Below, one piece after another: positions 2,110-54,023 of a stretch of DNA of 64,000 nucleotides. The position numbers were made by a program, and so were the translations under genes. Within the stretch, counting starts at the first letter, position 1; every line of letters begins with the position of its first letter. The DNA comes from Escherichia coli (GTDB lineage: Bacteria; Pseudomonadota; Gammaproteobacteria; Enterobacterales; Enterobacteriaceae), in NCBI RefSeq assembly GCF_044647545.1, contig NZ_CP172818.1; one strand, 5' to 3'. The notes under the pieces were generated by a model. It ran no database searches. It was not told the DNA's origin and was given only the letters and a program-made list of their open reading frames with translations.

Positions 2110-3510
2110 ATGGGGCAATCATCGCAACCACATGAGTTAGGCGGCGGGCTGAAGTCACGCCACGTCACCATGTTGTCTATTGCCGGTGTTATCGGCGCAA
2201 GTCTGTTTGTCGGTTCCAGCGTCGCCATCGCCGAAGCGGGCCCGGCGGTATTACTGGCCTATCTGTTCGCCGGATTACTGGTGGTTATGATTATGCGGAT
2301 GTTGGCGGAAATGGCGGTTGCCACGCCCGATACCGGTTCGTTTTCCACCTATGCCGATAAAGCCATTGGCCGTTGGGCGGGCTATACCATCGGCTGGTTG
2401 TACTGGTGGTTTTGGGTACTGGTTATCCCACTGGAAGCCAACATCGCCGCCATGATCCTGCACTCGTGGGTTCCAGGCATTCCCATCTGGTTATTTTCCC
2501 TGGTCATTACCCTCGCCTTGACTGGCAGTAATTTATTAAGCGTTAAAAACTACGGCGAATTTGAGTTCTGGCTGGCGCTGTGCAAAGTCATCGCTATCCT
2601 GGCCTTTATTTTCCTTGGTGCAGTCGCAATTAGCGGTTTTTACCCTTATGCCGAAGTGAGCGGGATCTCAAGATTGTGGGATAGCGGCGGCTTTATGCCC
2701 AACGGCTTCGGTGCGGTATTAAGCGCGATGTTGATCACCATGTTCTCGTTTATGGGCGCAGAAATTGTCACTATTGCCGCCGCGGAATCTGACACGCCGG
2801 AAAAACATATTGTCCGCGCCACCAACTCGGTTATCTGGCGTATTTCTATCTTCTATTTGTGCTCTATTTTTGTCGTCGTGGCATTAATACCGTGGAATAT
2901 GCCGGGGCTGAAAGCCGTTGGATCTTATCGCTCGGTTCTGGAGTTGCTCAATATTCCCCATGCGAAATTAATCATGGACTGCGTGATATTACTTTCCGTA
3001 ACCAGTTGCCTGAACTCGGCGCTGTATACCGCTTCCAGAATGCTCTACTCCTTAAGCCGTCGCGGTGATGCGCCCGCGGTAATGGGTAAAATCAACCGCA
3101 GTAAAACCCCGTATGTGGCGGTATTACTCTCCACCGGCGCGGCATTTTTAACGGTGGTGGTGAATTATTACGCGCCTGCGAAAGTGTTTAAATTTCTGAT
3201 CGACAGCTCCGGTGCTATCGCCCTGCTGGTTTATTTAGTCATCGCCGTTTCACAATTGCGGATGCGCAAAATTCTGCGAGCAGAAGGAAGCGAAATTCGC
3301 CTGCGGATGTGGCTTTATCCGTGGCTCACCTGGCTGGTCATCGGCTTTATTACCTTTGTGTTGGTAGTGATGCTATTCCGCCCGGCGCAACAGTTAGAAG
3401 TGATCTCCACCGGCTTATTAGCGATAGGGATTATCTGTACCGTGCCAATTATGGCTCGCTGGAAAAAGCTGATAATGTGGCAAAAAACACCCATTCATAA
3501 TACGCGCTGA
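2110..3510 (+). CDS. gabP: GABA permease (APC family)
   Basis: ORF track frame 2047..3510; start placed at ATG 2110 (protein MGQSSQPHELGG..., GAGG-like RBS just upstream); 466 aa. Confidence 0.93.
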   Translation: MGQSSQPHELGGGLKSRHVTMLSIAGVIGASLFVGSSVAIAEAGPAVLLAYLFAGLLVVMIMRMLAEMAVATPDTGSFSTYADKAIGRWAGYTIGWLYWWFWVLVIPLEANIAAMILHSWVPGIPIWLFSLVITLALTGSNLLSVKNYGEFEFWLALCKVIAILAFIFLGAVAISGFYPYAEVSGISRLWDSGGFMPNGFGAVLSAMLITMFSFMGAEIVTIAAAESDTPEKHIVRATNSVIWRISIFYLCSIFVVVALIPWNMPGLKAVGSYRSVLELLNIPHAKLIMDCVILLSVTSCLNSALYTASRMLYSLSRRGDAPAVMGKINRSKTPYVAVLLSTGAAFLTVVVNYYAPAKVFKFLIDSSGAIALLVYLVIAVSQLRMRKILRAEGSEIRLRMWLYPWLTWLVIGFITFVLVVMLFRPAQQLEVISTGLLAIGIICTVPIMARWKKLIMWQKTPIHNTR

Positions 3511-3530
3511 TAATGATCAGGAGTCACACC

Positions 3531-4193
3531 ATGACCATTACCTCTCTGGATGGCTATCGCTGGCTGAAGAACGATATTATTCGCGGTAATTTTCAACCGG
3601 ATGAAAAATTACGGATGAGTTTGCTGACATCGCGTTATGCACTTGGCGTTGGGCCGTTACGGGAAGCTCTTTCGCAACTGGTGGCGGAACGGCTGGTCAC
3701 GGTGGTGAATCAAAAAGGGTATCGGGTGGCGTCTATGTCAGAGCAGGAGCTGCTCGATATTTTCGACGCCCGCGCCAATATGGAAGCGATGCTGGTGAGT
3801 CTGGCGATTGCCCGCGGTGGCGATGAATGGGAGGCAGACGTTCTCGCAAAAGCGCATCTGCTCAGTAAGCTTGAGGCCTGTGACGCCAGTGAGAAAATGC
3901 TTGATGAGTGGGATCTGCGTCATCAGGCGTTTCATACTGCAATTGTGGCGGGCTGTGGTTCTTACTATTTGCTGCAAATGCGTGAACGGTTGTTTGATCT
4001 GGCAGCGCGTTATCGCTTTATCTGGCTGCGGCGAACAGTGCTTTCGGTGGAAATGCTGGAAGATAAACACGATCAGCACCAGACCCTGACTGCGGCGGTA
4101 CTGGCGCGAGATACCGCGCGCGCCAGTGAGTTAATGCGCCAGCATTTACTGACGCCAATTCCCATTATCCAGCAGGCGATGGCTGGCAATTAA
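3531..4193 (+). CDS. csiR: GntR-family transcriptional repressor CsiR
   Basis: ORF track frame 3513..4193; start placed at ATG 3531 with AGGAG RBS at 3519-3523; 220 aa. Confidence 0.9.
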   Translation: MTITSLDGYRWLKNDIIRGNFQPDEKLRMSLLTSRYALGVGPLREALSQLVAERLVTVVNQKGYRVASMSEQELLDIFDARANMEAMLVSLAIARGGDEWEADVLAKAHLLSKLEACDASEKMLDEWDLRHQAFHTAIVAGCGSYYLLQMRERLFDLAARYRFIWLRRTVLSVEMLEDKHDQHQTLTAAVLARDTARASELMRQHLLTPIPIIQQAMAGN

Positions 4194-4643
4194 CTACTCT
4201 TCAGGAATACGCAACACTTGCCCCGGGTAAATTTTATCCGGGCTTTTTAGCATCGGTTTATTCGCTTCGAAGATTTTATTGTACAGATTAGCGTTACCGT
4301 AGACCTGTTTGGAAATGGCACTCAGAGTGTCGCCAGACTTAACGGTATAAAACTGGCTGGCAGTGGCTGGTGTCGCCGTTTTCACCTGATCATCGACACT
4401 GGCAATACCGGAAATATTCCCCACCGCAACAAGGATTTTCTCCTTCGCCTCCTGACTTAAGCCGTCACCCGTGACCGTCGCTTTGCCGTCGGCAATTTGA
4501 ATGTTCACTTTATCGGCATCAGGTATACCGGTTTTGTTCAGATGCTCCTGCACCTTCTTCGCCTGATCGTCTTTATCGTGCTGACCTGTAACCGCGTCCC
4601 AGAGTTTTTCTCCGGCATCTTTCACAAAATTGAACAGACCCAT
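4194..4643 (-). CDS. kbp: potassium-binding protein Kbp (BON + LysM domains)
   Basis: ORF track 4194..4670 minus strand; start placed at internal ATG (4643) with GAGG RBS; LysM-like C-terminus ...[11 protein letters not shown]. Confidence 0.9.
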
Positions 4644-4726
4644 AGCTACCTCATTCGTTAACGGAAACACTCAGAAAGTGTAGCAGAGGAACGCGGCGCG
4701 TTAACGCCGCGGGGGTGAGCACAGGT

Positions 4727-4885
4727 TTAATCGCGGGTTTGCACCCAAAACGCGTGAATCAAACCGGGGATATACCCAAGCAGTGTCAGCAGAATATTAA
4801 TAATGAACGCCCAACCGAACCCTTTACCGAGCAGCACGCCGAGCGGCGGCAGAATGATGGTGATGACGATTCTCCAGAAACCCAT
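4727..4885 (-). CDS. yqaE: small membrane protein YqaE (Pmp3/UPF0057 family), 52 aa
   Basis: Not in ORF track (below 60 aa); hand-translated minus strand: MGFWRIVITIILPPLGVLLGKGFGWAFIINILLTLLGYIPGLIHAFWVQTRD, stop TAA at 4727-4729. Confidence 0.85.
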   Translation of the reverse strand: MGFWRIVITIILPPLGVLLGKGFGWAFIINILLTLLGYIPGLIHAFWVQTRD

Positions 4886-5067
4886 ATGTACTCCCTATAA
4901 GAAAATTACTCATTGTTTAAAAAGAGATTTTATCTCTTAAGCGTAGTAATTTTAGCGGAGCCTGCCAGTTTCAGCTTACGCTTTTACTCTCATTTACGCT
5001 GCTGAGGCTGGTATATGTTGCATTTTTAGTTTAGAGTTTGCTTAATTTAGAAAATACTTAAATAACT

Positions 5068-5367
5068 ATGACTGAACTCGCGCAATTACAGGCCAGTGCC
5101 GAACAGGCAGCGGCCTTATTGAAAGCAATGAGCCACCCTAAACGATTGCTGATTCTGTGCATGCTTAGCGGTTCCCCCGGCACCAGCGCGGGAGAGCTGA
5201 CTCGCATTACCGGACTGAGTGCCTCTGCGACATCACAGCATCTCGCTCGTATGCGGGACGAAGGGCTTATCGACAGCCAACGGGATGCCCAACGCATTCT
5301 ATATTCCATTAAAAATGAGGCGGTAAATGCCATTATCGCCACCCTGAAAAATGTCTATTGTCCGTAA
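5068..5367 (+). CDS. ygaV: ArsR-family transcriptional regulator
   Basis: ORF track 5068..5367, 99 aa; helix-turn-helix ArsR-like sequence; precedes ygaP. Confidence 0.9.
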   Translation: MTELAQLQASAEQAAALLKAMSHPKRLLILCMLSGSPGTSAGELTRITGLSASATSQHLARMRDEGLIDSQRDAQRILYSIKNEAVNAIIATLKNVYCP

Positions 5368-8362: not shown

Positions 8363-8390
8363 CCCCGAAGCCTGGCTTCGGGGTTTCTTC
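8363..8390 (+). terminator. rho-independent terminator after ygaM
   Basis: ccccgaagcc-tg-gcttcgggg hairpin followed by TTTCTTC. Confidence 0.65.
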
Positions 8391-8584
8391 ATTATGCCCG
8401 GCAAAAAAACACAAAAATCCCCTACCCCGTTGAGCCATTCATCGGTGGCGTAATCAATCTAAAATTCCCATATCTTGTGTGGTTGAATCTTTTTTCAACT
8501 ACATCTAGTATCTCTGTATCAACAGAGAGACAACCCGACGCGTATCATCGCGCCGTATCTTCATTTTAAACGGAAATACGAATC

Positions 8585-8830
8585 ATGCGCATTACTATTT
8601 ACACTCGTAACGATTGCGTTCAGTGCCACGCCACCAAACGGGCGATGGAAAACCGGGGCTTTGATTTTGAAATGATTAATGTCGATCGCGTTCCTGAAGC
8701 GGCAGAAGCGCTGCGTGCTCAGGGCTTTCGTCAGTTGCCGGTTGTGATTGCAGGCGATCTTAGCTGGTCTGGTTTCCGCCCGGACATGATCAATCGTCTG
8801 CATCCAGCGCCACACGCGGCCAGTGCATGA
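8585..8830 (+). CDS. nrdH: glutaredoxin-like protein NrdH
   Basis: ORF track 8585..8830, 81 aa; CVQC redox motif; first gene of nrdHIEF. Confidence 0.96.
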
Positions 8831-9237
8831 GCCAGCTCGTCTACTTTTCCAGCAGCTCCGAAAATACGCAGCGTTTTATCGAACGTTTAGGGCTGCCCGC
8901 GGTGCGCATCCCGCTCAATGAGCGGGAACGGATTCAGGTAGACGAGCCTTACATCCTGATCGTGCCCTCTTACGGCGGCGGCGGTACGACTGGCGCGGTG
9001 CCACGACAGGTCATTCGCTTTTTAAACGACGAGCATAACCGGGCGTTGCTGCGCGGCGTTATTGCTTCGGGTAATCGCAACTTTGGTGAGGCATATGGCC
9101 GCGCCGGAGATGTGATTGCCCGGAAATGCGGCGTGCCGTGGCTGTACCGCTTTGAACTCATGGGTACGCAAAGCGATATCGAAAACGTTCGTAAAGGAGT
9201 AACCGAATTTTGGCAACGACAACCGCAGAACGCCTGA
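8827..9237 (+). CDS. nrdI: flavodoxin-like ribonucleotide reductase stimulatory protein NrdI
   Basis: ORF track 8827..9237, 136 aa; 4-bp overlap with nrdH. Confidence 0.96.
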
Positions 9238-11354
9238 CGCAGGAAACGATGGATTATCACGCTCTGAATGCGATGCTTAACCTTTACGATAGCGCAGGTC
9301 GCATTCAGTTCGATAAAGATCTCCAGGCAGTAGACGCCTTTATGACGACGCATGTGCGTCCGAACAGTGTGGCCTTCAGTAGCCAGCAGCAGCGCCTGAA
9401 CTGGCTGGTTAACGAAGGTTACTATGATGAAAGTGTCCTTAATCGCTACTCTCGCGATTTTGTCATTACGCTGTTTGCCCACGCGCACGCCAGCGGTTTT
9501 CGTTTCCAGACATTCCTCGGAGCATGGAAGTTTTACACCAGCTATACGTTGAAGACATTCGACGGTAAGCGTTATCTGGAAGATTTTGCCGATCGCGTCA
9601 CGATGGTGGCGCTGACGCTGGCACAAGGCGATGAAACACTGGCGACGCAGCTCACTGATGAGATGCTGTCAGGACGCTTTCAGCCAGCCACGCCAACATT
9701 CCTCAACTGCGGTAAGCAGCAGCGCGGCGAACTGGTTTCCTGTTTTCTGCTGCGTATTGAAGACAATATGGAGTCGATTGGCCGGGCAGTAAATTCCGCA
9801 CTACAACTGTCGAAACGCGGCGGCGGCGTAGCATTTTTGCTGTCGAATCTGCGGGAAGCGGGCGCGCCAATTAAACGTATTGAAAATCAATCTTCTGGCG
9901 TGATTCCGGTGATGAAAATGCTGGAAGACGCATTTTCCTATGCTAACCAACTCGGCGCGCGTCAGGGGGCTGGGGCAGTCTATTTACATGCTCATCATCC
10001 CGATATTCTGCGTTTTCTCGATACAAAACGGGAAAATGCCGACGAAAAAATCCGCATTAAAACACTGTCGCTGGGCGTGGTGATCCCGGATATCACTTTC
10101 CATCTGGCAAAAGAGAATGCGCAGATGGCGCTGTTTTCGCCTTATGACGTAGAGCGAGTTTATGGCAAACCGTTTGCCGATGTCGCCATCAGCGAACGCT
10201 ATGACGAACTGGTTGCCGATGAACGCATTCGCAAAAAATACCTCAACGCCCGTGATTTCTTCCAGCGACTGGCAGAGATCCAGTTTGAGTCTGGCTATCC
10301 GTACATCATGTATGAAGACACGGTTAACCGTGCTAACCCTATCGCCGGGCGCATAAATATGAGCAATCTCTGCTCAGAAATTTTGCAGGTTAACAGCGCC
10401 TCAGAATATGACGAGAATCTCGACTATGCTCGTACAGGCCATGATATTTCCTGCAATCTAGGGTCGTTGAATATTGCCCACACAATGGATTCCCCCGACT
10501 TTGCCCGCACGGTAGAGACTGCCGTACGCGGTTTAACGGCGGTGTCAGATATGAGTCATATCCGCAGCGTGCCGTCCATCGAAGCCGGAAATGCCGCCTC
10601 ACACGCCATCGGTCTGGGGCAGATGAATTTACACGGTTATCTGGCGCGAGAAGGCATCGCTTATGGTTCGCCGGAAGCACTGGATTTCACCAATCTCTAT
10701 TTCTATACCATCACCTGGCACGCACTGCGTACCTCGATGTTGCTGGCGCGCGAACGCGGTGAAACCTTCGCCGGGTTCAAACAGTCACGCTATGCCAGTG
10801 GTGAATATTTCAGCCAATATCTGCAAAGTAACTGGCAGCCGAAAACGGCGAAAGTTGGCGAACTGTTTGCCCGTAGTGGTATTACGTTACCTACCCGTGA
10901 GATGTGGGCGCAGCTGCGCGACGACGTGATGCGCTATGGCATATACAACCAGAATCTCCAGGCGGTGCCGCCAACCGGTTCTATCTCTTATATCAACCAT
11001 GCCACGTCGAGTATTCATCCGATTGTGGCGAAAGTAGAGATACGCAAAGAGGGCAAAACAGGACGCGTTTACTACCCTGCCCCGTTTATGACTAACGAAA
11101 ATCTGGCGCTGTATCAGGACGCTTACGAAATCGGCGCAGAAAAGATCATCGACACCTACGCGGAAGCGACTCGCCATGTCGATCAGGGGCTGTCGCTGAC
11201 GCTGTTTTTCCCCGATACCGCCACCACTCGCGATATCAACAAAGCGCAGATTTACGCCTGGCGCAAAGGTATCAAAACGCTCTATTACATCCGCCTGCGT
11301 CAGATGGCGCTGGAAGGCACTGAAATTGAAGGCTGCGTCTCCTGTGCACTTTAA
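9210..11354 (+). CDS. nrdE: class Ib ribonucleotide reductase alpha subunit
   Basis: ORF track 9210..11354, 714 aa; recognised NrdE. Confidence 0.96.
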
Positions 11355-26979: not shown

Positions 26980-29610
26980 TTATTGCAATTTCGCGCTGAC
27001 CCAGCCTTTCACACTGGCTAACGCTGCAGGTAAGGCCGCAGCATCCGTACCACCGGCTTGCGCCATGTCAGGACGTCCACCACCCTTGCCGCCCACCTGC
27101 TGAGCGACCATACCAATCAGCTCCCCTGCTTTCACACGATCTGTGACGTCCTTAGATACGCCTGCAATCAGAGAAACCTTACCTTCGGCTACCGTTGCCA
27201 GCACGATAATTGTCGACCCCAGCTGATTTTTTAAATCGTCAACCATGGTACGCAACATTTTCGGCTCAACACCGCTAAGCTCGCTAACCAACAGCTTAAC
27301 ACCATTAACATCAATTGCCTTACTGGAAAGATTTGCGCTCTCCTGTGCGGCAGCTTGTTCTTTAAGCTGTTGTAACTCTTTTTCCAACTGACGCGTACGT
27401 TCCAGTACTGAACGCACTTTATCAGCCAGATTATTGCTATCGCCTTTCAGCAGATGCGCGACTTCGCTTAAGCGATCACTGTCTGCATGAACGGTGGCGA
27501 TAGCGCCTTCTCCGGTTACCGCTTCGATACGACGAACGCCTGCAGCAGTACCCGATTCAGAGATGATGCGGAACAGACCAATATCACCAGTGCGGCTGGC
27601 GTGAGTACCGCCACACAACTCGGTGGAGAAATCACCCATGCTCAGCACGCGTACGCGCTCATCATACTTCTCGCCAAACAGCGCCATCGCACCTTTCGCT
27701 TTCGCCGCTTCGAGATCCATGATGTTGGTTTCGATCGGCAAGTTACGGCGAATCTGTGCGTTCACCAGGTCTTCGACCGCACGAATCTCTTCTGGTTTCA
27801 TCGCTTCGTTGTGTGAGAAGTCGAAGCGCAGCACTTTGTCGTTAACCAGTGAACCTTTCTGCGATACATGAGTACCCAGAACCTGGCGCAGCGCAGCGTG
27901 CATCAGGTGCGTTGCGGAGTGATTCAGACGAATACGGGCGCGACGAGCCTCATCAACATCAGCCTGCACAGCGTCGCCCACTTTCAGAGAACCCGTAGCA
28001 AGTTTACCGATGTGACCAATCGCCTGGCCGTATTTCTGAGTATCTTCCACCGCAAAGGAGAAGTTAGCGCCTTTCAGTTCGCCTTTATCACCAACCTGAC
28101 CGCCGGATTCCGCATAGAATGGCGTTTGATCCAGCACGACCACAGCTTCCTGGCCTGCATTGACGGCATCAACCGCTTTACCATCAACAAACAGCGCGGT
28201 CACTTTGCCGTTCAGTTCCAGATGGTCATAGCCTTTAAATTCAGATGCACTGTCAACACGGATCATTGCGTTGTAATCGGCACCAAAGCCGCTGGCTTCG
28301 CGCGCACGACGACGCTGCTCTTCCATTGCTGCTTCAAATCCAGCTTCGTCAACTTTGATGTTGCGCTCACGACAAACATCAGCCGTCAGGTCAACCGGGA
28401 AGCCATAGGTGTCGTACAAACGGAAAGCAGTTTCACCATCCAGCGTATCACCAGAAAGTTTTGCCAGCTCTTCATCCAGCAACGCCAGACCGCGCTCCAG
28501 AGTACGAGCAAACTGCTCTTCTTCAGTCTTCAGCACCTGCTCAACCTGCGCCTGCTGGCGTTTCAGGTCTTCACCCGCAGAGCCCATAACGTCGATCAGC
28601 GGACCAACCAGTTTGTAGAAAAAGGTTTCTTTCGCGCCGAGCATATTACCGTGACGCACTGCGCGACGAATGATACGACGCAGTACATAACCACGGTTTT
28701 CGTTGGACGGCATTACGCCATCCGCGATCAGGAACGCACAAGAACGAATGTGGTCAGCGATTACGCGCAGCGATTTATTGCTCAGATCGGTTGCGCCAGT
28801 GACTTTCGCTACCGCCTGGATCAGCGTGCGGAACAAGTCGATGTCATAGTTAGAGTTAACGTGTTGCAGCACCGCAGCAATACGCTCCAGACCCATACCG
28901 GTATCTACAGACGGCTTCGGCAGCGGTTCCATCGTGCCATCGGCCTGGCGGTTGAACTGCATGAAGACGATGTTCCAGATCTCAATGTAGCGATCGCCGT
29001 CTTCTTCCGGACTTCCCGGAGGGCCACCCCAAATGTGGTCGCCGTGATCGTAGAAGATTTCGGTGCACGGGCCGCACGGACCAGTGTCACCCATCTGCCA
29101 GAAGTTGTCAGATGCGTATGGCGCACCTTTGTTATCGCCGATGCGAATAATACGTTCGCGCGGGATCCCTACTTCTTTTTCCCAGATTTCGTAGGCTTCG
29201 TCGTCGCTTTCATAGACGGTAACCCACAGACGCTCTTTCGGCAGGGCAAACCATTTTTCACTGGTCAGCAGTTCCCATGCAAACTGAATGGCATCGTGTT
29301 TGAAATAGTCGCCGAAGCTGAAGTTGCCCAGCATTTCGAAGAAGGTATGGTGACGCGCGGTGTAACCGACGTTTTCCAGGTCGTTGTGTTTACCACCCGC
29401 ACGCACGCAGCGTTGGGAAGTGGTAGCGCGGGAATAATTACGCTTGTCGAGCCCAAGGAACACATCCTTGAACTGGTTCATCCCGGCGTTGGTAAACAAC
29501 AAAGTTGGGTCGTTATGGGGTACCAGGGAGCTGCTGGCAACTACCTGATGTCCCTTACTATGGAAAAAGTCGAGAAACGCCTGACGGATCTCAGCGGTGC
29601 TCTTGCTCAT
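26980..29610 (-). CDS. alaS: alanine--tRNA ligase
   Basis: ORF track 26980..29610, 876 aa; recognised AlaS. Confidence 0.97.
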
Positions 29611-38380: not shown

Positions 38381-39891
38381 TCCTTCAGCCCCAGACGTTT
38401 CGCCAACCGATGCAAGTTGGCGACGTCGGTTTCCAGCATCCGTGCGCTGGCAGCCCAGTTGTGATGATTTTGTGCCAGTGCCTGACGAATGGTTTCACGC
38501 TGGAACGCTTCTGTCGCTTCACGCAGGTTTTGCTTAACGATAGGCACCGCCGCCGCTTCTGGCGGCGGCAACGTCACCTCAGGAAAAGCAAAATGTTGCG
38601 CTTCAAGAATCACTTCATCGCCGCTGCGGGTCGCTCTCGCCAGCACCACCGCCCGATGAATAGCATGTTCCAGTTCGCGCACGTTTCCCGGAAAACTGTA
38701 GTGTTGCAGTAAATTTCGCGCCCCGGCACTTAATACCACGCGGGAGAGCCCCAGCCGCAAACGACACTGCTCGCAGAAATACCCCGCCAGCAGAATGACA
38801 TCATCGCCCCGCTCACGCAGCGGCGGCACCGAAAGTGGGAACACGCTCAGGCGATGAAACAAATCGGCGCGGAATCGCCCTGCCAGCACCTCTTCGCGTA
38901 AGTCGCGGTTAGTCGCCGCCAGCACGCGCACATCGACCCGCAAACTGCGGTCATCGCCAACGCGCTGAATATCGCCATACTGCAACACCCTCAGCAGCTT
39001 GGCCTGCAATGCCAACGACAGCTCGCCGATCTCATCGAGAAACAGTGTGCCGTTATCCGCCATTTCAAACTTCCCGCTGCGGTTACTGATAGCGCCAGTA
39101 AACGCTCCTTTCACATGCCCGAACAACTCACTTTCCGCCACACTTTCCGGCAGTGCGGCACAGTTGAGATAGACCAGCGGATTCACCGCCCTTGGCGAGG
39201 TTTCATGAATCGCTTTCGCCACCAGCTCCTTACCGGTTCCCGTCTCACCGCTGATTAAGACGTTGAGATCGGACGCCGCCACAATCTCAATCTCTTTTTT
39301 CAATTGCGTCATGCCTGGCGACAAGCCAATCATCTGCGTCTGTTTCACCGCTTCAAACGGCGCGGCATCGCCCGGCAGCATATTCTGGCTTTCCAGTTGC
39401 TCAATCAGCAACGCATTGCTTAACGCTCCCGCCGCCAGCGCGGCAATCAGGCGTAACTCTTCGTCGCTGAAAACATCGAACTGATCGGGTTGCATCCCGT
39501 CGAGCGTCAATGCGCCGATCAGGTTTTGCCCGGCAAACAATGGCAGACCAACGCAGGCGTGAACCTTCAGACTCTCCTGCCCGGGAATCAAACCGTCATA
39601 GGGATCGGGCAATTCGCTGTCTGCGGGAAAGCGCACCACGTCCCCGGCGCGGGCAATCGCTTCCAGCCGTGGATGCCCTTCCAGCGCAAAGCGTCTACCG
39701 AGTACATCCTTCGCCAGCCCGTCGATGGCAAGCGGAATAAACTGCCGCGAGTCATAACGTAGCAACGCAGAGGCATCACACTCCAGCACCTGACGCAGCG
39801 TGGTGATCAGGCGCTGAAAACGATCCTGATGACCAATCCCACGCTGCAATTCGATGGCGATATTCGCCAGCACATCAACGGAAAAACTCAT
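38377..39891 (-). CDS. norR: sigma54-dependent NO-responsive activator (GAF, AAA+, HTH)
   Basis: ORF track 38377..39891, 504 aa; GAFTGA motif present (KGAFTGA). Confidence 0.96.
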
Positions 39892-39903
39892 CTTTGCCTC
39901 ACT

Positions 39904-39959
39904 GTCAATTTGACTATAGATATTGTCATATCGACCATTTTATTGATAGTCATTTTGAC
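39904..39959 (+). promoter_or_regulatory. three NorR enhancer sites (GT-N7-AC) in the norR-norV intergenic region
   Basis: gtcaatttgac (39904-39914), gtcatatcgac (39925-39935), gtcattttgac (39949-39959) read from sequence; matches the described NorR site consensus. Confidence 0.8.
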
Positions 39960-40014
39960 TACTCATTAATGAGCACAATTTTATTTATAGAGTAAAAACA
40001 ATCAGATAAAAAAC

Positions 40015-40030
40015 TGGCACGCAATCTGCA
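40015..40030 (+). promoter_or_regulatory. sigma54 (-24/-12) promoter of norVW
   Basis: TGGCAC-gcaat-cTGCA with the canonical GG-N10-GC spacing, about 48 bp upstream of the norV ATG. Confidence 0.8.
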
Positions 40031-40077
40031 ATTAGCAAGACATCTTTTTAGAACACGCTGAATAAATTGAGGTTGCT

Positions 40078-41517
40078 ATGTCTATTGTGGTGAAAAATAA
40101 CATTCATTGGGTTGGTCAACGTGACTGGGAAGTGCGTGATTTTCACGGTACAGAATATAAAACGCTGCGCGGCAGCAGCTACAACAGCTACCTCATCCGT
40201 GAAGAAAAAAACGTGCTGATCGACACCGTCGACCATAAATTCAGCCGCGAATTTGTGCAGAACCTGCGTAATGAAATCGATCTGGCAGATATCGATTACA
40301 TCGTAATTAACCATGCTGAAGAGGACCACGCCGGGGCGCTGACCGAACTGATGGCGCAAATTCCCGATACGCCGATCTACTGTACAGCCAACGCTATCGA
40401 CTCGATAAATGGTCATCACCATCATCCGGAGTGGAATTTTAATGTGGTGAAAACTGGCGACACGCTGGATATCGGCAACGGCAAACAGCTCATTTTTGTC
40501 GAAACGCCAATGCTGCACTGGCCGGACAGCATGATGACTTACCTGACAGGCGACGCGGTGCTATTCAGTAACGATGCTTTCGGTCAGCACTACTGCGACG
40601 AGCATCTGTTCAACGATGAAGTGGATCAGACGGAGCTTTTCGAGCAGTGCCAGCGTTACTACGCCAATATCCTGACGCCGTTCAGCCGCCTGGTAACGCC
40701 GAAAATTACCGAGATCCTGGGCTTTAACTTGCCAGTCGATATGATAGCGACCTCTCACGGCGTGGTATGGCGCGATAACCCGACGCAAATTGTCGAGCTG
40801 TACCTGAAATGGGCGGCGGATTATCAGGAAGACAGAATCACCATTTTCTACGACACCATGTCGAATAACACCCGCATGATGGCTGACGCTATCGCCCAGG
40901 GGATTGCGGAAACCGACCCACGCGTGGCGGTGAAAATTTTCAACGTCGCCCGAAGCGATAAAAACGAAATCCTGACCAATGTCTTCCGCTCAAAAGGCGT
41001 CCTGGTCGGCACTTCGACGATGAATAATGTGATGATGCCGAAAATCGCCGGGCTGGTGGAGGAGATGACCGGATTACGCTTCCGTAACAAACGCGCCAGT
41101 GCTTTCGGCTCTCACGGCTGGAGCGGCGGTGCGGTGGATCGTCTTTCCACGCGCCTGCAGGATGCGGGTTTCGAAATGTCGCTTAGCCTGAAAGCCAAAT
41201 GGCGACCAGACCAGGACGCTCTGGAGTTATGTCGTGAACACGGTCGCGAAATCGCCCGTCAGTGGGCGCTCGCGCCGCTGCCGCAGAGCACGGTGAATAC
41301 GGTGGTTAAAGAAGAAACCTCTGCCGCCACGACGGCTGACCTCGGCCCACGGATGCAATGCAGCGTCTGCCAGTGGATTTACGATCCGGCAAAAGGTGAG
41401 CCAATGCAGGACGTTGCGCCAGGAACGCCGTGGAGTGAAGTCCCGGATAACTTCCTGTGCCCGGAATGCTCTCTCGGCAAAGACGTCTTTGACGAACTGG
41501 CATCGGAGGCAAAATGA
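40078..41517 (+). CDS. norV: anaerobic NO reductase flavorubredoxin
   Basis: ORF track 40078..41517, 479 aa; metallo-beta-lactamase-like, flavodoxin and C-terminal rubredoxin (CxxC...CxxC) regions. Confidence 0.96.
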
Positions 41518-42647
41518 GCAACGGCATTGTGATCATTGGTTCGGGCTTCGCCGCCCGCCAACTGGTGAAAAATATTCGCAAACAGGACGCCAGTATTCCA
41601 TTAACTCTGATTGCCGCCGACAGCATGGATGAGTACAACAAACCTGACCTCAGCCATGTTATCAGTCAGGGGCAACGTGCCGATGACCTTACCCGCCAGA
41701 CGGCAGGTGAATTTGCCGAGCAGTTTAATCTGCGCTTGTTTCCGCACACCTGGGTAACGGATATCGATGCCGAAGCCCATGTGGTGAAAAGTCAGAATAA
41801 TCAGTGGCAATACGACAAGTTAGTGCTGGCAACCGGTGCCAGCGCCTTTGTCCCGCCAGTGCCCGGGCGTGAGTTAATGCTGACGTTAAATAGTCAGCAA
41901 GAGTATCGCGCCTGTGAAACGCAACTGCGGGATGCCCGACGCGTGTTGATTGTTGGCGGTGGCTTGATTGGTAGCGAGCTGGCGATGGATTTTTGTCGGG
42001 CAGGCAAAGCGGTCACGCTAATCGACAACGCTGCCAGTATTCTGGCGTCGTTAATGCCACCGGAAGTAAGCAGCCGCTTGCAGCATCGGTTGACGGAGAT
42101 GGGCGTTCATCTGCTGTTAAAATCTCAGTTGCAGGGACTGGAAAAAACAGATTCTGGCATTCTGGCAACGCTGGACCGCCAGCGCTGCATTGAAGTGGAT
42201 GCGGTAATTGCCGCCACCGGACTGCGCCCGGAAACCGCCCTGGCACGACGCGCCGGGCTGACGATTAATCGTGGCGTTTGCGTCGATAGCTATCTGCAAA
42301 CCAGTAATGCCGATATTTATGCGCTGGGCGATTGCGCGGAAATTAACGGTCAGGTATTGCCGTTCCTCCAGCCGATTCAACTTAGCGCAATGGTGCTGGC
42401 AAAAAATCTTCTCGGCAATAACACGCCGCTGAAACTACCGGCGATGCTGGTGAAAATCAAAACGCCGGAATTACCGCTGCATCTGGCAGGCGAAACCCAG
42501 CGTCAGGATTTACGCTGGCAAATTAATACCGAACGCCAGGGAATGGTTGCGCGCGGTGTTGACGATGCTGACCAGCTTCGCGCCTTTGTGGTCAGTGAGG
42601 ATCGGATGAAAGAGGCGTTTGGATTGTTGAAAACGTTGCCGATGTAG
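41514..42647 (+). CDS. norW: NADH:flavorubredoxin reductase
   Basis: ORF track 41514..42647, 377 aa; 4-bp overlap with norV. Confidence 0.96.
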
Positions 42648-51762: not shown

Positions 51763-52304
51763 CAGATGGCCTCTTTCATATGGCGAGTCAGTTCAATACG
51801 GTCGGACGGCACCAGGCATTTCTGGCGCTTACATTCCGGGCAAGTCTCAAAGCTTTCGCGGTGGTTTTCCGCGCGGCTGTCGCCGTTGTGCTTAAGCAGC
51901 GCAATGGCGTAGTCGATCTCTTTCTGGACGGCGAAAGGACGATTGCAGACGCGGCAGTTGCACAGCGCGAAGCGGGACTGTTGCAGGAAGTCTTCTTTCT
52001 TCCACACCGCCAGTTCGTATTCTTGCGACAGCTTAATCGCCGCCGTCGGACAGACTTCTTCACAGCGTCCACAGAAGATGCAGCGCCCGAGATTGAACTG
52101 CCACGCCAGCTCTCCTGTGGCGAGGTCAGTTTCAACCGTTAAGGCGTTTGACGGGCAGGCATTGACGCAGGCCGCACAGCCGATGCACTGCTGCGGGTTC
52201 TGCTCTGGCTTACCACGGAAGTTTTTATCAACCGCAATCGGCTCCAGCGGATAAGACGAGGTCGCCGTGCCGGTTTTGATAACTTTTTTGATAAAGGTAA
52301 ACAT
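51762..52304 (-). CDS. hycF: formate hydrogenlyase 4Fe-4S subunit
   Basis: ORF track 51762..52304, 180 aa; two CxxCxxCxxxCP motifs. Confidence 0.95.
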
Positions 52305-52313
52305 GGCGACTCC

Positions 52314-54023
52314 TTATTTCAGCGGCGAGTTTTTACGCTCAATGCTGTAGCGCTCGAGTTCTTTGTACGGCACCACTTTGCTCTTCTTCTTACGTACATC
52401 GACCACGGTCATGCGGTCGGTACAGGAGTAGCAAGGGTCCAGGCTACCGATAATCAACGGCGCATCGGAAACGGTGTTGCCGCGCAGCATGTAGCGCAGG
52501 GTCGGCCAGTTTGCGTAGGTCGCCGCACGGCAGCGCCAGCGGTACAGCTTCTGGTTGTCGCCGGTCATGCTCCAGTGGATATCGTCGCCGCGCGGCGCTT
52601 CGGCAAAGCCCAGCGCGAAACGGTGCGGAATGTAGGTAAAGCCTTCCACCATCAGCGGGCCGCCCGGCAGGTTATCCAGACCGTAATCGATCATATTCAG
52701 CGCGGTATAGACTTCGTTGATACGCACTTTCAGACGGGAAATAACGTCGCAGCCCTGCTCGCTGTGGACTTCCATTGGCAGCAGGCCATAACCAACAAAC
52801 GGGTGATCGGCACGGGTATCACGGGCGTGACCGCTGGCACGGACCATCGGGCCAACGTTACTGAAGTCGCGAGCGATTTCCGGGTCCAGACGACCAATAC
52901 CGACGGTGCGTTGTTCCATGTTCGGTGTGCTCAGCAGCACATCCACCAGCTCCTGCACTTCACGACGCATCTGTTGTGCCAGCTGGCGGGTCTGGATCAT
53001 GTCGTCTTTCAGCAGATCGCGACGAATCCCGCCGATCAGGTTCAGGCCGTAGGTTTTACGTGCACCGGTAAGGATCTCTGCCATTTTCATGGAGGTTTCA
53101 CGCACGCGGAAGAACTGCATAAAGCCGGAGTCGAAGCCGGTAAAGTGACAGGCGAGGCCGAGGTTGAGCAGATGCGAGTGCAGGCGTTCTACCTCCAGCA
53201 GAATGGCGCGGATCATCTGCGCACGTTCTGGCACCTGAATACCCATCGCGTTTTCCACCGACGTGGTGTAGGCGGTGCTGTGAGCAAAGCCGCAGATCCC
53301 GCACACACGGTCAGAGAGGAAGGTCACTTCGTTGTAACCCATGCGGGTTTCCGCCAGTTTTTCCATGCCGCGATGGACATAGAACAGGCGGTAGTCGGCG
53401 TCGATAATGTTTTCGCCATCGACGAACAGACGGAAGTGGCCCGGTTCGTCAGAAGTGACGTGCAGCGGACCAATCGGCACGACATTGTTTTTCTTGTCGC
53501 CCAGTTCGTTGATGAACTCGTAGGTTTCAGCATCGGTAGTCGGTGCCGGACGCTGACGATAATCCATGCTGTCTTTACGCAGCGGATAAAGTTCATCCGG
53601 CCAGTCATCCGGCAGCACCAGACGACGTTCATCCGGAAGCCCTACCGGAATCAAACCGTACATATCGCGCACTTCGCGCTCGCCCCACACCGCCGCCGGA
53701 ACGCGCGGTGTCACGGACGGATATTCCGGTTTGTTGGCGTCAACTTCGACGCGCACGGTTATCCAGCATTTGGTGCCCTTCTCCATCGACAGCACGTAGT
53801 AAACGGCGTAATGACCATTCAGTTTGCGTTCGTCGTTACCAAACAGCACCGACAGCCAGCCACCCTGCTTGTAATAGAGAAACTCCACCACTTCCGGCAG
53901 GTAGTTTACCTTCACGGTCACGGTCAGCTGATCTTTGGTCTGCCAGGCGTGGTCCAGCACGACGCCCGGAAATGCCTCATTCAGCGCGGCGAGATAATGT
54001 TGACCTAATTTTTCTTCAGACAT
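52314..54023 (-). CDS. hycE: hydrogenase 3 large (NiFe catalytic) subunit
   Basis: ORF track frame 52314..54044; start placed at ATG 54023 (MSEEKLGQHYLAALNEAF...). Confidence 0.95.
   Translation of the reverse strand: MSEEKLGQHYLAALNEAFPGVVLDHAWQTKDQLTVTVKVNYLPEVVEFLYYKQGGWLSVLFGNDERKLNGHYAVYYVLSMEKGTKCWITVRVEVDANKPEYPSVTPRVPAAVWGEREVRDMYGLIPVGLPDERRLVLPDDWPDELYPLRKDSMDYRQRPAPTTDAETYEFINELGDKKNNVVPIGPLHVTSDEPGHFRLFVDGENIIDADYRLFYVHRGMEKLAETRMGYNEVTFLSDRVCGICGFAHSTAYTTSVENAMGIQVPERAQMIRAILLEVERLHSHLLNLGLACHFTGFDSGFMQFFRVRETSMKMAEILTGARKTYGLNLIGGIRRDLLKDDMIQTRQLAQQMRREVQELVDVLLSTPNMEQRTVGIGRLDPEIARDFSNVGPMVRASGHARDTRADHPFVGYGLLPMEVHSEQGCDVISRLKVRINEVYTALNMIDYGLDNLPGGPLMVEGFTYIPHRFALGFAEAPRGDDIHWSMTGDNQKLYRWRCRAATYANWPTLRYMLRGNTVSDAPLIIGSLDPCYSCTDRMTVVDVRKKKSKVVPYKELERYSIERKNSPLK

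Follow-up and report, generated by a model that had tools for sequence, protein, structure and literature searches.

In this study, we examined how transcription ends between csiR and kbp, two convergent genes of Escherichia coli whose stop codons touch. The stretch of DNA analysed (the window) is 64,000 nucleotides of contig NZ_CP172818.1 from RefSeq assembly GCF_044647545.1. The genes and their junction lie at the following window positions.

3531-4193, plus strand: coding sequence (CDS) of csiR (glaR/gabC), a GntR-family repressor; from the open reading frame (ORF) list and the RefSeq annotations of an identical strain and of K-12
4194-4643, minus strand: CDS of kbp (ygaU), a K+-binding BON-LysM protein; from the ORF list and annotation
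4191-4196, both strands: stop-to-stop junction TAA/CTA with a 0-bp intergenic gap; from the sequence

The csiR product has 220 amino acids, with Pfam GntR at residues 10-66 and FCD at residues 76-206. The kbp product has 149, with BON at 24-89 and LysM at 99-147, and it matches the solved structure PDB 7PVC across residues 1-149. The junction reads GGC AAT TAA/CTA CTC TTC. The csiR stop TAA (4191-4193) directly adjoins cta (4194-4196), the reverse complement of the kbp stop TAG, as the initial annotation had stated; the sequence, the Prokaryotic Genome Annotation Pipeline (PGAP) and the K-12 annotation all confirm this. The initial annotation had also allowed for a re-annotation that moves either stop. 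The annotations of the identical strain and of K-12 agree, and since stop codons are independent of start-codon choice, re-annotation cannot move the stop of csiR or kbp.

The identical strain is E. coli FDAARGOS_497, which matches the stretch 3400-4800 at 100%. The 0-bp gap is found in its RefSeq/PGAP annotation and in the curated K-12 MG1655 record, where csiR/glaR runs to 2796336 and kbp from 2796337. Of 5426 complete E. coli genomes, 5412 carry the stretch, with 95-100% identity across 80% or more of it, and the junction was kept in 5403 of the 5426 (60-nt centred query, at least 95% identity, one ungapped-looking piece). Published K-12 data were placed on the window by subtracting 2,792,143 from the MG1655 coordinate (NC_000913.3). 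Around the junction the two sequences differ at 3 of 260 bases; 2 of the 152 bases in the transcript overlap described below are different.

Transcript 3' ends and their overlap

There is no DNA between the stops, and therefore the 3'-end signal of each gene sits within the coding sequence of the other. The features on the csiR strand are as follows.

4222-4248, plus strand: intrinsic-terminator-like element found by terminator scan; 9-bp stem with a 3-nt loop (4222-4242), then C and five U (4244-4248)
4194-4248, plus strand: csiR 3' untranslated region (UTR) of 55 nt, all of it kbp coding sequence; antisense to kbp codons 132-149 and the stop

The terminator-like element was predicted independently by the scan and by folding, and it lies entirely within kbp codons 132-141, in the part that encodes the LysM domain. 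Five of its nine stem pairs are G-C, CTTTTT follows the stem-loop, and the fold has a predicted energy of -12.2 to -13.8 kcal/mol (z = -2.8 against shuffles). The end of its U-run, position 4248, was mapped to K-12 2796391 before the Term-seq table of Adams et al. 2021 (PMC7815308, Supplementary file 1) was looked up. The table has a plus-strand 3' end at exactly that position, the last U of the five, with 1,697 reads in LB at an optical density (OD) of 2.0. The entry is labelled 'antisense ygaU', and the sequence given for it runs to the last T of CTTTTT. The csiR end thus has the sequence of an intrinsic terminator (GC-rich stem, short loop, direct U-run) as well as the expected position, with the 3' end inside the U-run. 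The site is not among the entries in the available part of the Rho table of the same study (Supplementary file 2). These results suggest that the plus-strand end reflects true termination.

The kbp strand carries a different set of features.

4097-4193, minus strand: kbp 3' UTR of 97 nt, bounded by a Term-seq 3' end; antisense to csiR codons 189-220 and the stop
4101-4126, minus strand: GC-rich hairpin CUGGCGCGC...GCGCCAG, about -16.7 kcal/mol by folding; opposite csiR codons 191-199, in the FCD domain
4136-4155, minus strand: second hairpin GCGUCAGU...GCUGGCGC, -12.6 kcal/mol by folding; opposite csiR codons 202-209
3668, minus strand: centre of a Rho termination region (K-12 2795811), about 525 nt past the kbp stop and antisense to csiR

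The minus-strand 3' end at K-12 2796240, window position 4097, was recorded in all three growth conditions of the Term-seq study (PMC7815308, Supplementary file 1), where it is labelled only 'antisense csiR'. Its reads rose about 26-fold, from 23,751 in LB at OD 0.4 to 614,566 in LB at OD 2.0, and in the available part of the table the latter count is well above other stationary-phase 3' ends, such as 231,175 reads at 4640415. The kbp 3' UTR is predicted to fold into three stem-loops (-39.8 kcal/mol). The GC-rich hairpin ends 4 nt ahead of the 3' end and is followed by no U-tract, and the second hairpin holds a U.G pair whose plus-strand counterpart would be an A.C mismatch. Further along the same strand, the region at 2795811 is bicyclomycin-sensitive, with a Rho score of 6.6 and p = 1.3e-18 (Adams et al. 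2021, PMC7815308, Supplementary file 2), and the minus-strand RNA from 4096 to 3668 is C-rich and G-poor (C/G 1.37-1.57). After Rho termination, 3'-to-5' exonucleases usually trim the RNA (Adams et al. 2021, PMC7815308). The kbp end fits an end of this kind, produced by Rho and subsequent trimming, and we infer that position 4097 is a trimmed end.

Two further features concern the RNA that both strands share.

4097-4248, both strands: perfect complementarity of the mature RNAs, 152 nt, the difference between the two Term-seq 3' ends
3943-4226, both strands: p19-captured, RNase III-cut double-stranded RNA (dsRNA) cluster S-217, listed as 'csiR ygaU', 3', Convergent (Huang et al. 2020, Table S1e)

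The initial annotation held that the 3' ends of the two transcripts must overlap. The overlap is supported by the K-12 data, in which the 3' ends 2796391(+) and 2796240(-) lie beyond each other by 152 nt; 'must' was strictly too strong, as a transcript could end at its stop. The operon map of Conway et al., as tabulated in Huang et al. 2020 (PMC7373196, Table S1), gives a 412-nt convergent overlap at window positions 3922-4334. Cluster S-217 was captured in stationary phase at about 150 reads per million (RPM), at 2794108-2794391 in U00096.2 (Huang et al. 2020, PMC7373196); its offset was fixed by the sequence quoted in its row, GTAGTTAATTGCC. The overlap is thus supported by three independent published data sets, and the K-12 literature data indicate that some csiR and kbp RNA pairs in vivo and is cut by RNase III.

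The locus is an ordinary, already catalogued instance of convergent overlapping transcription units, that is, a 3'-overlapping cis-antisense mRNA pair. In the overlapping convergent operons of Conway et al. 2014 and Huang et al. 2020 (for example fre/fadA, S-332), transcripts likewise pass each other's 3' ends and give complementary RNA cut by RNase III. The csiR/kbp pair shows no difference of substance from them; it has no intergenic DNA, and its UTRs are wholly partner coding sequence. No dedicated study of the csiR/kbp junction was found in literature searches (ygaU with csiR; ygaU with sRNA).

Immediately upstream of kbp, a strong 3' end of yqaE is found at window position 4688 (K-12 2796831, minus strand), about 45 nt from the kbp start codon. 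It is labelled 'primary yqaE' in the Term-seq table and has 27,762 reads in LB at OD 0.4 and 69,321 at OD 2.0. A minus-strand unit begins upstream of yqaE (about window 4941) in the Conway map, as tabulated. The stationary-phase abundance of the kbp 3' end is about 9 times that of the yqaE end. The explanation is either a separate promoter for kbp or regulated read-through at the yqaE 3' end.

Evolution of the junction and the embedded signals

For comparison with relatives, 120 kbp loci were retrieved from species-representative genomes with a degenerate DNA pattern for the Kbp N-terminus. Among these loci, a convergent csiR beside kbp was found in Escherichia, Salmonella and Citrobacter only. 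A gap of 6 bp is shared by Salmonella, C. amalonaticus, C. sedlakii and one Escherichia lineage outside E. coli; a second such lineage has 3 bp, the C. freundii group 12 bp and E. coli 0 bp. Because the gap is 0-12 bp in every sampled member of the three genera, both UTRs must fall in the partner ORF across the clade. In the alignment, a 24-nt deletion took away a longer CsiR C-terminus in Escherichia, and within E. coli the stop additionally shifted to touch that of kbp. Among the relatives compared, the exact abutment is a detail of E. coli, while the compaction is clade-wide and older than the zero gap. The zero gap itself has no evident function or meaning.

Salmonella has a weak hairpin with a T-run for kbp on the segment that was lost in Escherichia. 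Two subspecies of Salmonella enterica, arizonae and diarizonae, have a short hairpin 6-21 nt past the kbp stop, with CTTCATTTTT or CAGCATTTTT after it. The hairpin is encoded opposite the last codons of the longer CsiR C-terminus, in the 24-nt segment that is gone in Escherichia. Where kbp lies away from csiR (Serratia, Enterobacter and others), a canonical hairpin with a T-run is common 15-30 nt past the kbp stop.

The history of the csiR terminator was followed by a comparison anchored on kbp codons. A loose terminator scan over 111 kbp homologs had given too many chance hits for a comparison of groups and was set aside. In the codon-anchored comparison, a stem at the same kbp codons folds at -6 kcal/mol or lower in 79% of 100 homologs without adjacent csiR. 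The stem is nearly universal because the conserved PDKIYPG codons are intrinsically palindromic. The U-run adjoining it derives from the codons of Lys133-Ser134, and a T-run of at least four after the stem was present in 13 of 14 csiR-adjacent loci versus 7% of the others. A hairpin with U-run specific to genomes in which csiR abuts kbp was also considered, and the specificity was not clean: the stem is near-universal and the U-run tracks phylogeny. In E. coli and two Citrobacter sequences, a rare CTA codon for Leu132 extends the U-run from U4 to U5, which is suggestive only as a sign of selection. On the sequence comparison, the embedded terminator fits the co-option of existing coding sequence.

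The minus-strand hairpins were compared across 14 sequences of Escherichia, Salmonella and Citrobacter. In the hairpin at 4101-4126, which was conserved, 98% of cells were paired and one GC>AU change was compensatory; the hairpin at 4136-4155 was paired in 100% of cells. Combined, 99.1% of cells were paired on the minus strand, among them U.G pairs that the plus strand would show as A.C mismatches; broken cells numbered 2 of 224 on the minus strand versus 18 on the plus strand.

Proposed account and alternative explanations

We propose that csiR and kbp are convergent genes whose 3' signals lie in each other's coding sequences, with an intrinsic end for csiR, a Rho-plus-trimmed end for kbp and a 152-nt region of duplex; as a whole, we give this account a probability of about 75%. 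Transcription of gab-csiR would extend 55 nt into kbp and halt at the intrinsic terminator, a 9-bp hairpin with U5 that would be formed by the antisense of kbp LysM codons. In the other direction, transcription of kbp would enter csiR and proceed on untranslated, C-rich antisense RNA until Rho released it a few hundred nucleotides further. The 3'-to-5' exonucleases would then cut the kbp RNA back to the GC-rich hairpin, leaving the dominant 3' end 97 nt beyond the stop, after a hairpin without a U-tract. Some of the mature RNAs, which are complementary over 152 nt, pair in vivo and are cleaved by RNase III.

The kbp part of this account resembles the Rho-terminated, hairpin-protected, trimmed mRNAs of Dar and Sorek 2018, as described in Adams et al. 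2021. Shared with those mRNAs are the C-rich untranslated RNA, the bicyclomycin-sensitive region downstream and the end at a stem without a U-tract. Unlike them as described there, the kbp 'UTR' is the antisense of a translated gene, and its trimming is a likely rather than an observed step.

Several points weigh against the account. What ties the Rho region at 3668 to the 3' end at 4097 is circumstantial evidence, and Term-seq cannot separate termination from processing. The plus-strand 3' end is curated in LB at OD 2.0 only, with the 1,697 reads given above. The experimental evidence is all from K-12 and none is from the window strain, whose terminator stem has a G.U pair where K-12 has A-U. 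From the comparative side, the U-run is also found in 6 of the 8 closest relatives without adjacent csiR, and because of these relatives its association with csiR adjacency is confounded by phylogeny. The covariation of the minus-strand hairpins was not significant, as the one compensatory pair was equalled in 124 of 500 shuffles; coding constraint alone could thus explain the conservation of the hairpins.

The kbp end at 4097 might instead be made in place, if the GC-rich hairpin paused or destabilised the polymerase without a U-tract, perhaps aided by head-on collision with polymerases on csiR, a mechanism that has been put forward for the overlapping bidirectional terminators of convergent E. 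coli genes. This explanation agrees with a sharp, dominant end that recurs in all three conditions directly 3' of a hairpin of about -16.7 kcal/mol, and hairpin-dependent, Rho-independent termination without a U-tract between convergent genes has been described by Ju et al. and Wang et al. It agrees less well with other observations: the two 3' ends flank separate hairpins 152 nt apart and share no single palindrome, transcription of the csiR strand is very weak compared with that of kbp, so that collisions should be rare, and the bicyclomycin-sensitive region downstream implies that some polymerases get past 4097. We consider an end made in place unlikely, though not far-fetched.

The related class of overlapping bidirectional terminators (Ju et al. 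2019; Wang et al., ynaJ-uspE model; bioRxiv 10.1101/2022.10.23.513370) was considered for the locus as a whole. Like csiR/kbp, these terminators serve convergent genes and have hairpin-linked ends, and the kbp end shares the missing U-tract. They use one shared intergenic hairpin region and give a short overlap, whereas csiR/kbp has two hairpins, each in the partner ORF; moreover, the csiR end resembles a canonical intrinsic terminator, and the kbp strand has a Rho-sensitive region. No curated minus-strand end lies beside the plus-strand hairpin in the Term-seq table of Adams et al. 2021 (PMC7815308). The class was ruled out, since the two ends are 152 nt apart after different hairpins (4222-4242 on the plus strand and 4101-4126 on the minus strand).

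The overlap might also be a regulatory device, in which transcription of kbp, or its stable 3' UTR RNA, lowers csiR through polymerase collision or RNase III cutting. Strong induction of kbp in stationary phase or under osmotic stress would then be coupled to relief of CsiR repression at the glaH(csiD)-lhgD-gabDTP operon. The strand imbalance in stationary phase (614,566 Term-seq reads for kbp against 1,697 for csiR), the capture of RNase III-cut dsRNA exactly at the junction in the same phase and the 0-12 bp packing conserved over three genera all speak for such a role. However, no experiment ties kbp transcription to the level of csiR. The p19-captured dsRNA averages 37.9-fold less for convergent (3') than for divergent overlaps (Huang et al. 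2020, PMC7373196), and S-217 is itself modest at about 150 RPM. The duplex spans the last 32 csiR codons only, downstream of most csiR translation, and the exact spacing varies among relatives, a sign of drift. A regulatory device appears distinctly improbable, and the overlap is probably a tolerated by-product of genome compaction with no dedicated switch.

A narrower form of this idea starts from one more published feature.

4197, minus strand: published RNA 5' end (2794362), at the last base of kbp codon 149, just before the stop

The 5' end is an entry of Dornenburg et al. with 11 reads, an RNA start of GTAGTTAATTGCC and a -10 match of 3/6, and the Thomason differential RNA-seq (dRNA-seq) column is blank for it, both as tabulated in PMC7373196. 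The entry reflects either processing or a weak antisense start. Together with the 3' end at 4097, this 5' end could conceivably bound a discrete, highly structured RNA from the kbp 3' UTR. Such an RNA would measure about 101 nt, match the final 32 csiR codons as a perfect antisense and lower CsiR through RNase III; we give this little credence. The 5' end and the abundant 3' end come from different studies, the candidate RNA lacks a 3' U-tract for Hfq, and a scan of 3400-5100 gave no Rfam family match. If real, such an RNA would link the K+/osmotic and sigma-S induction of kbp to de-repression of glutarate and gamma-aminobutyric acid (GABA) catabolism. Finally, an annotation artefact, in which one of the stops is not a real protein end, found no supporting point, has practically no chance of being true and is already refuted: both frames are closed by these stops under any start codon, the domain models extend to Kbp 147/149 and CsiR 206/220 and the structure covers Kbp 1-149, the curated K-12 and PGAP annotations are concordant, and the orthologues of relatives stop at homologous positions or a little later.

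With both genes ending where annotated and each 3' UTR inside the partner, csiR/kbp is a clean, well-documented case of a compact bacterial genome that places 3'-end signals in a neighbour's coding sequence, and its importance beyond careful annotation is small. The two Term-seq peaks labelled 'antisense' mark where the mRNAs of the neighbouring genes end. If the 3' end of either gene is deleted or synonymously recoded, the terminator or UTR of the other will change, and a kbp or csiR knock-out lacking the last 100 nt or so should be interpreted with the partner's terminator or UTR in mind.

Gene spacing and other features of the window

The 64-kb window contains eight convergent gene pairs, with gaps of 0 (csiR/kbp), -4 (gutQ/norR), 36, 46, 56, 63, 78 and 78 bp. 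The csiR/kbp gap is at the short extreme, yet it is not unique even within 64 kb. In E. coli, 704 convergent pairs have been counted in a recent preprint, in which at most 114 were filtered out for a zero or negative gap or an over-long one.

40243-40246: overlap of gutQ (39281-40246, plus strand) and norR (40243-41757, minus strand); from annotation

The initial annotation had likened csiR/kbp to gutQ/norR, implying that the latter pair abuts too. It does not: the annotated coding sequences overlap by 4 bp. Both pairs are convergent and without a spacer, and the gutQ and norR transcripts must overlap as well; the difference is that their stops overlap rather than abut. The ascB gene and a helix-turn-helix gene form a further convergent pair, with a 78-bp gap. 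Two small minus-strand genes, encoding a helix-turn-helix domain protein and a 61-amino-acid hypothetical protein, lie at 51899-52529 between ascB and hycI.

At 8388-10241, between ygaM and nrdH, the window carries a pyridoxal phosphate (PLP)-dependent aminotransferase-family (MocR-like) gene and a divergent gene of the carboxymuconolactone-decarboxylase family. In K-12, nrdH presumably follows ygaM directly, and the segment may be an insert that varies among strains. A tRNA cluster annotated on the minus strand at 27518-28110, upstream of csrA, comprises four tRNA-Arg genes and one for tRNA-Ser.

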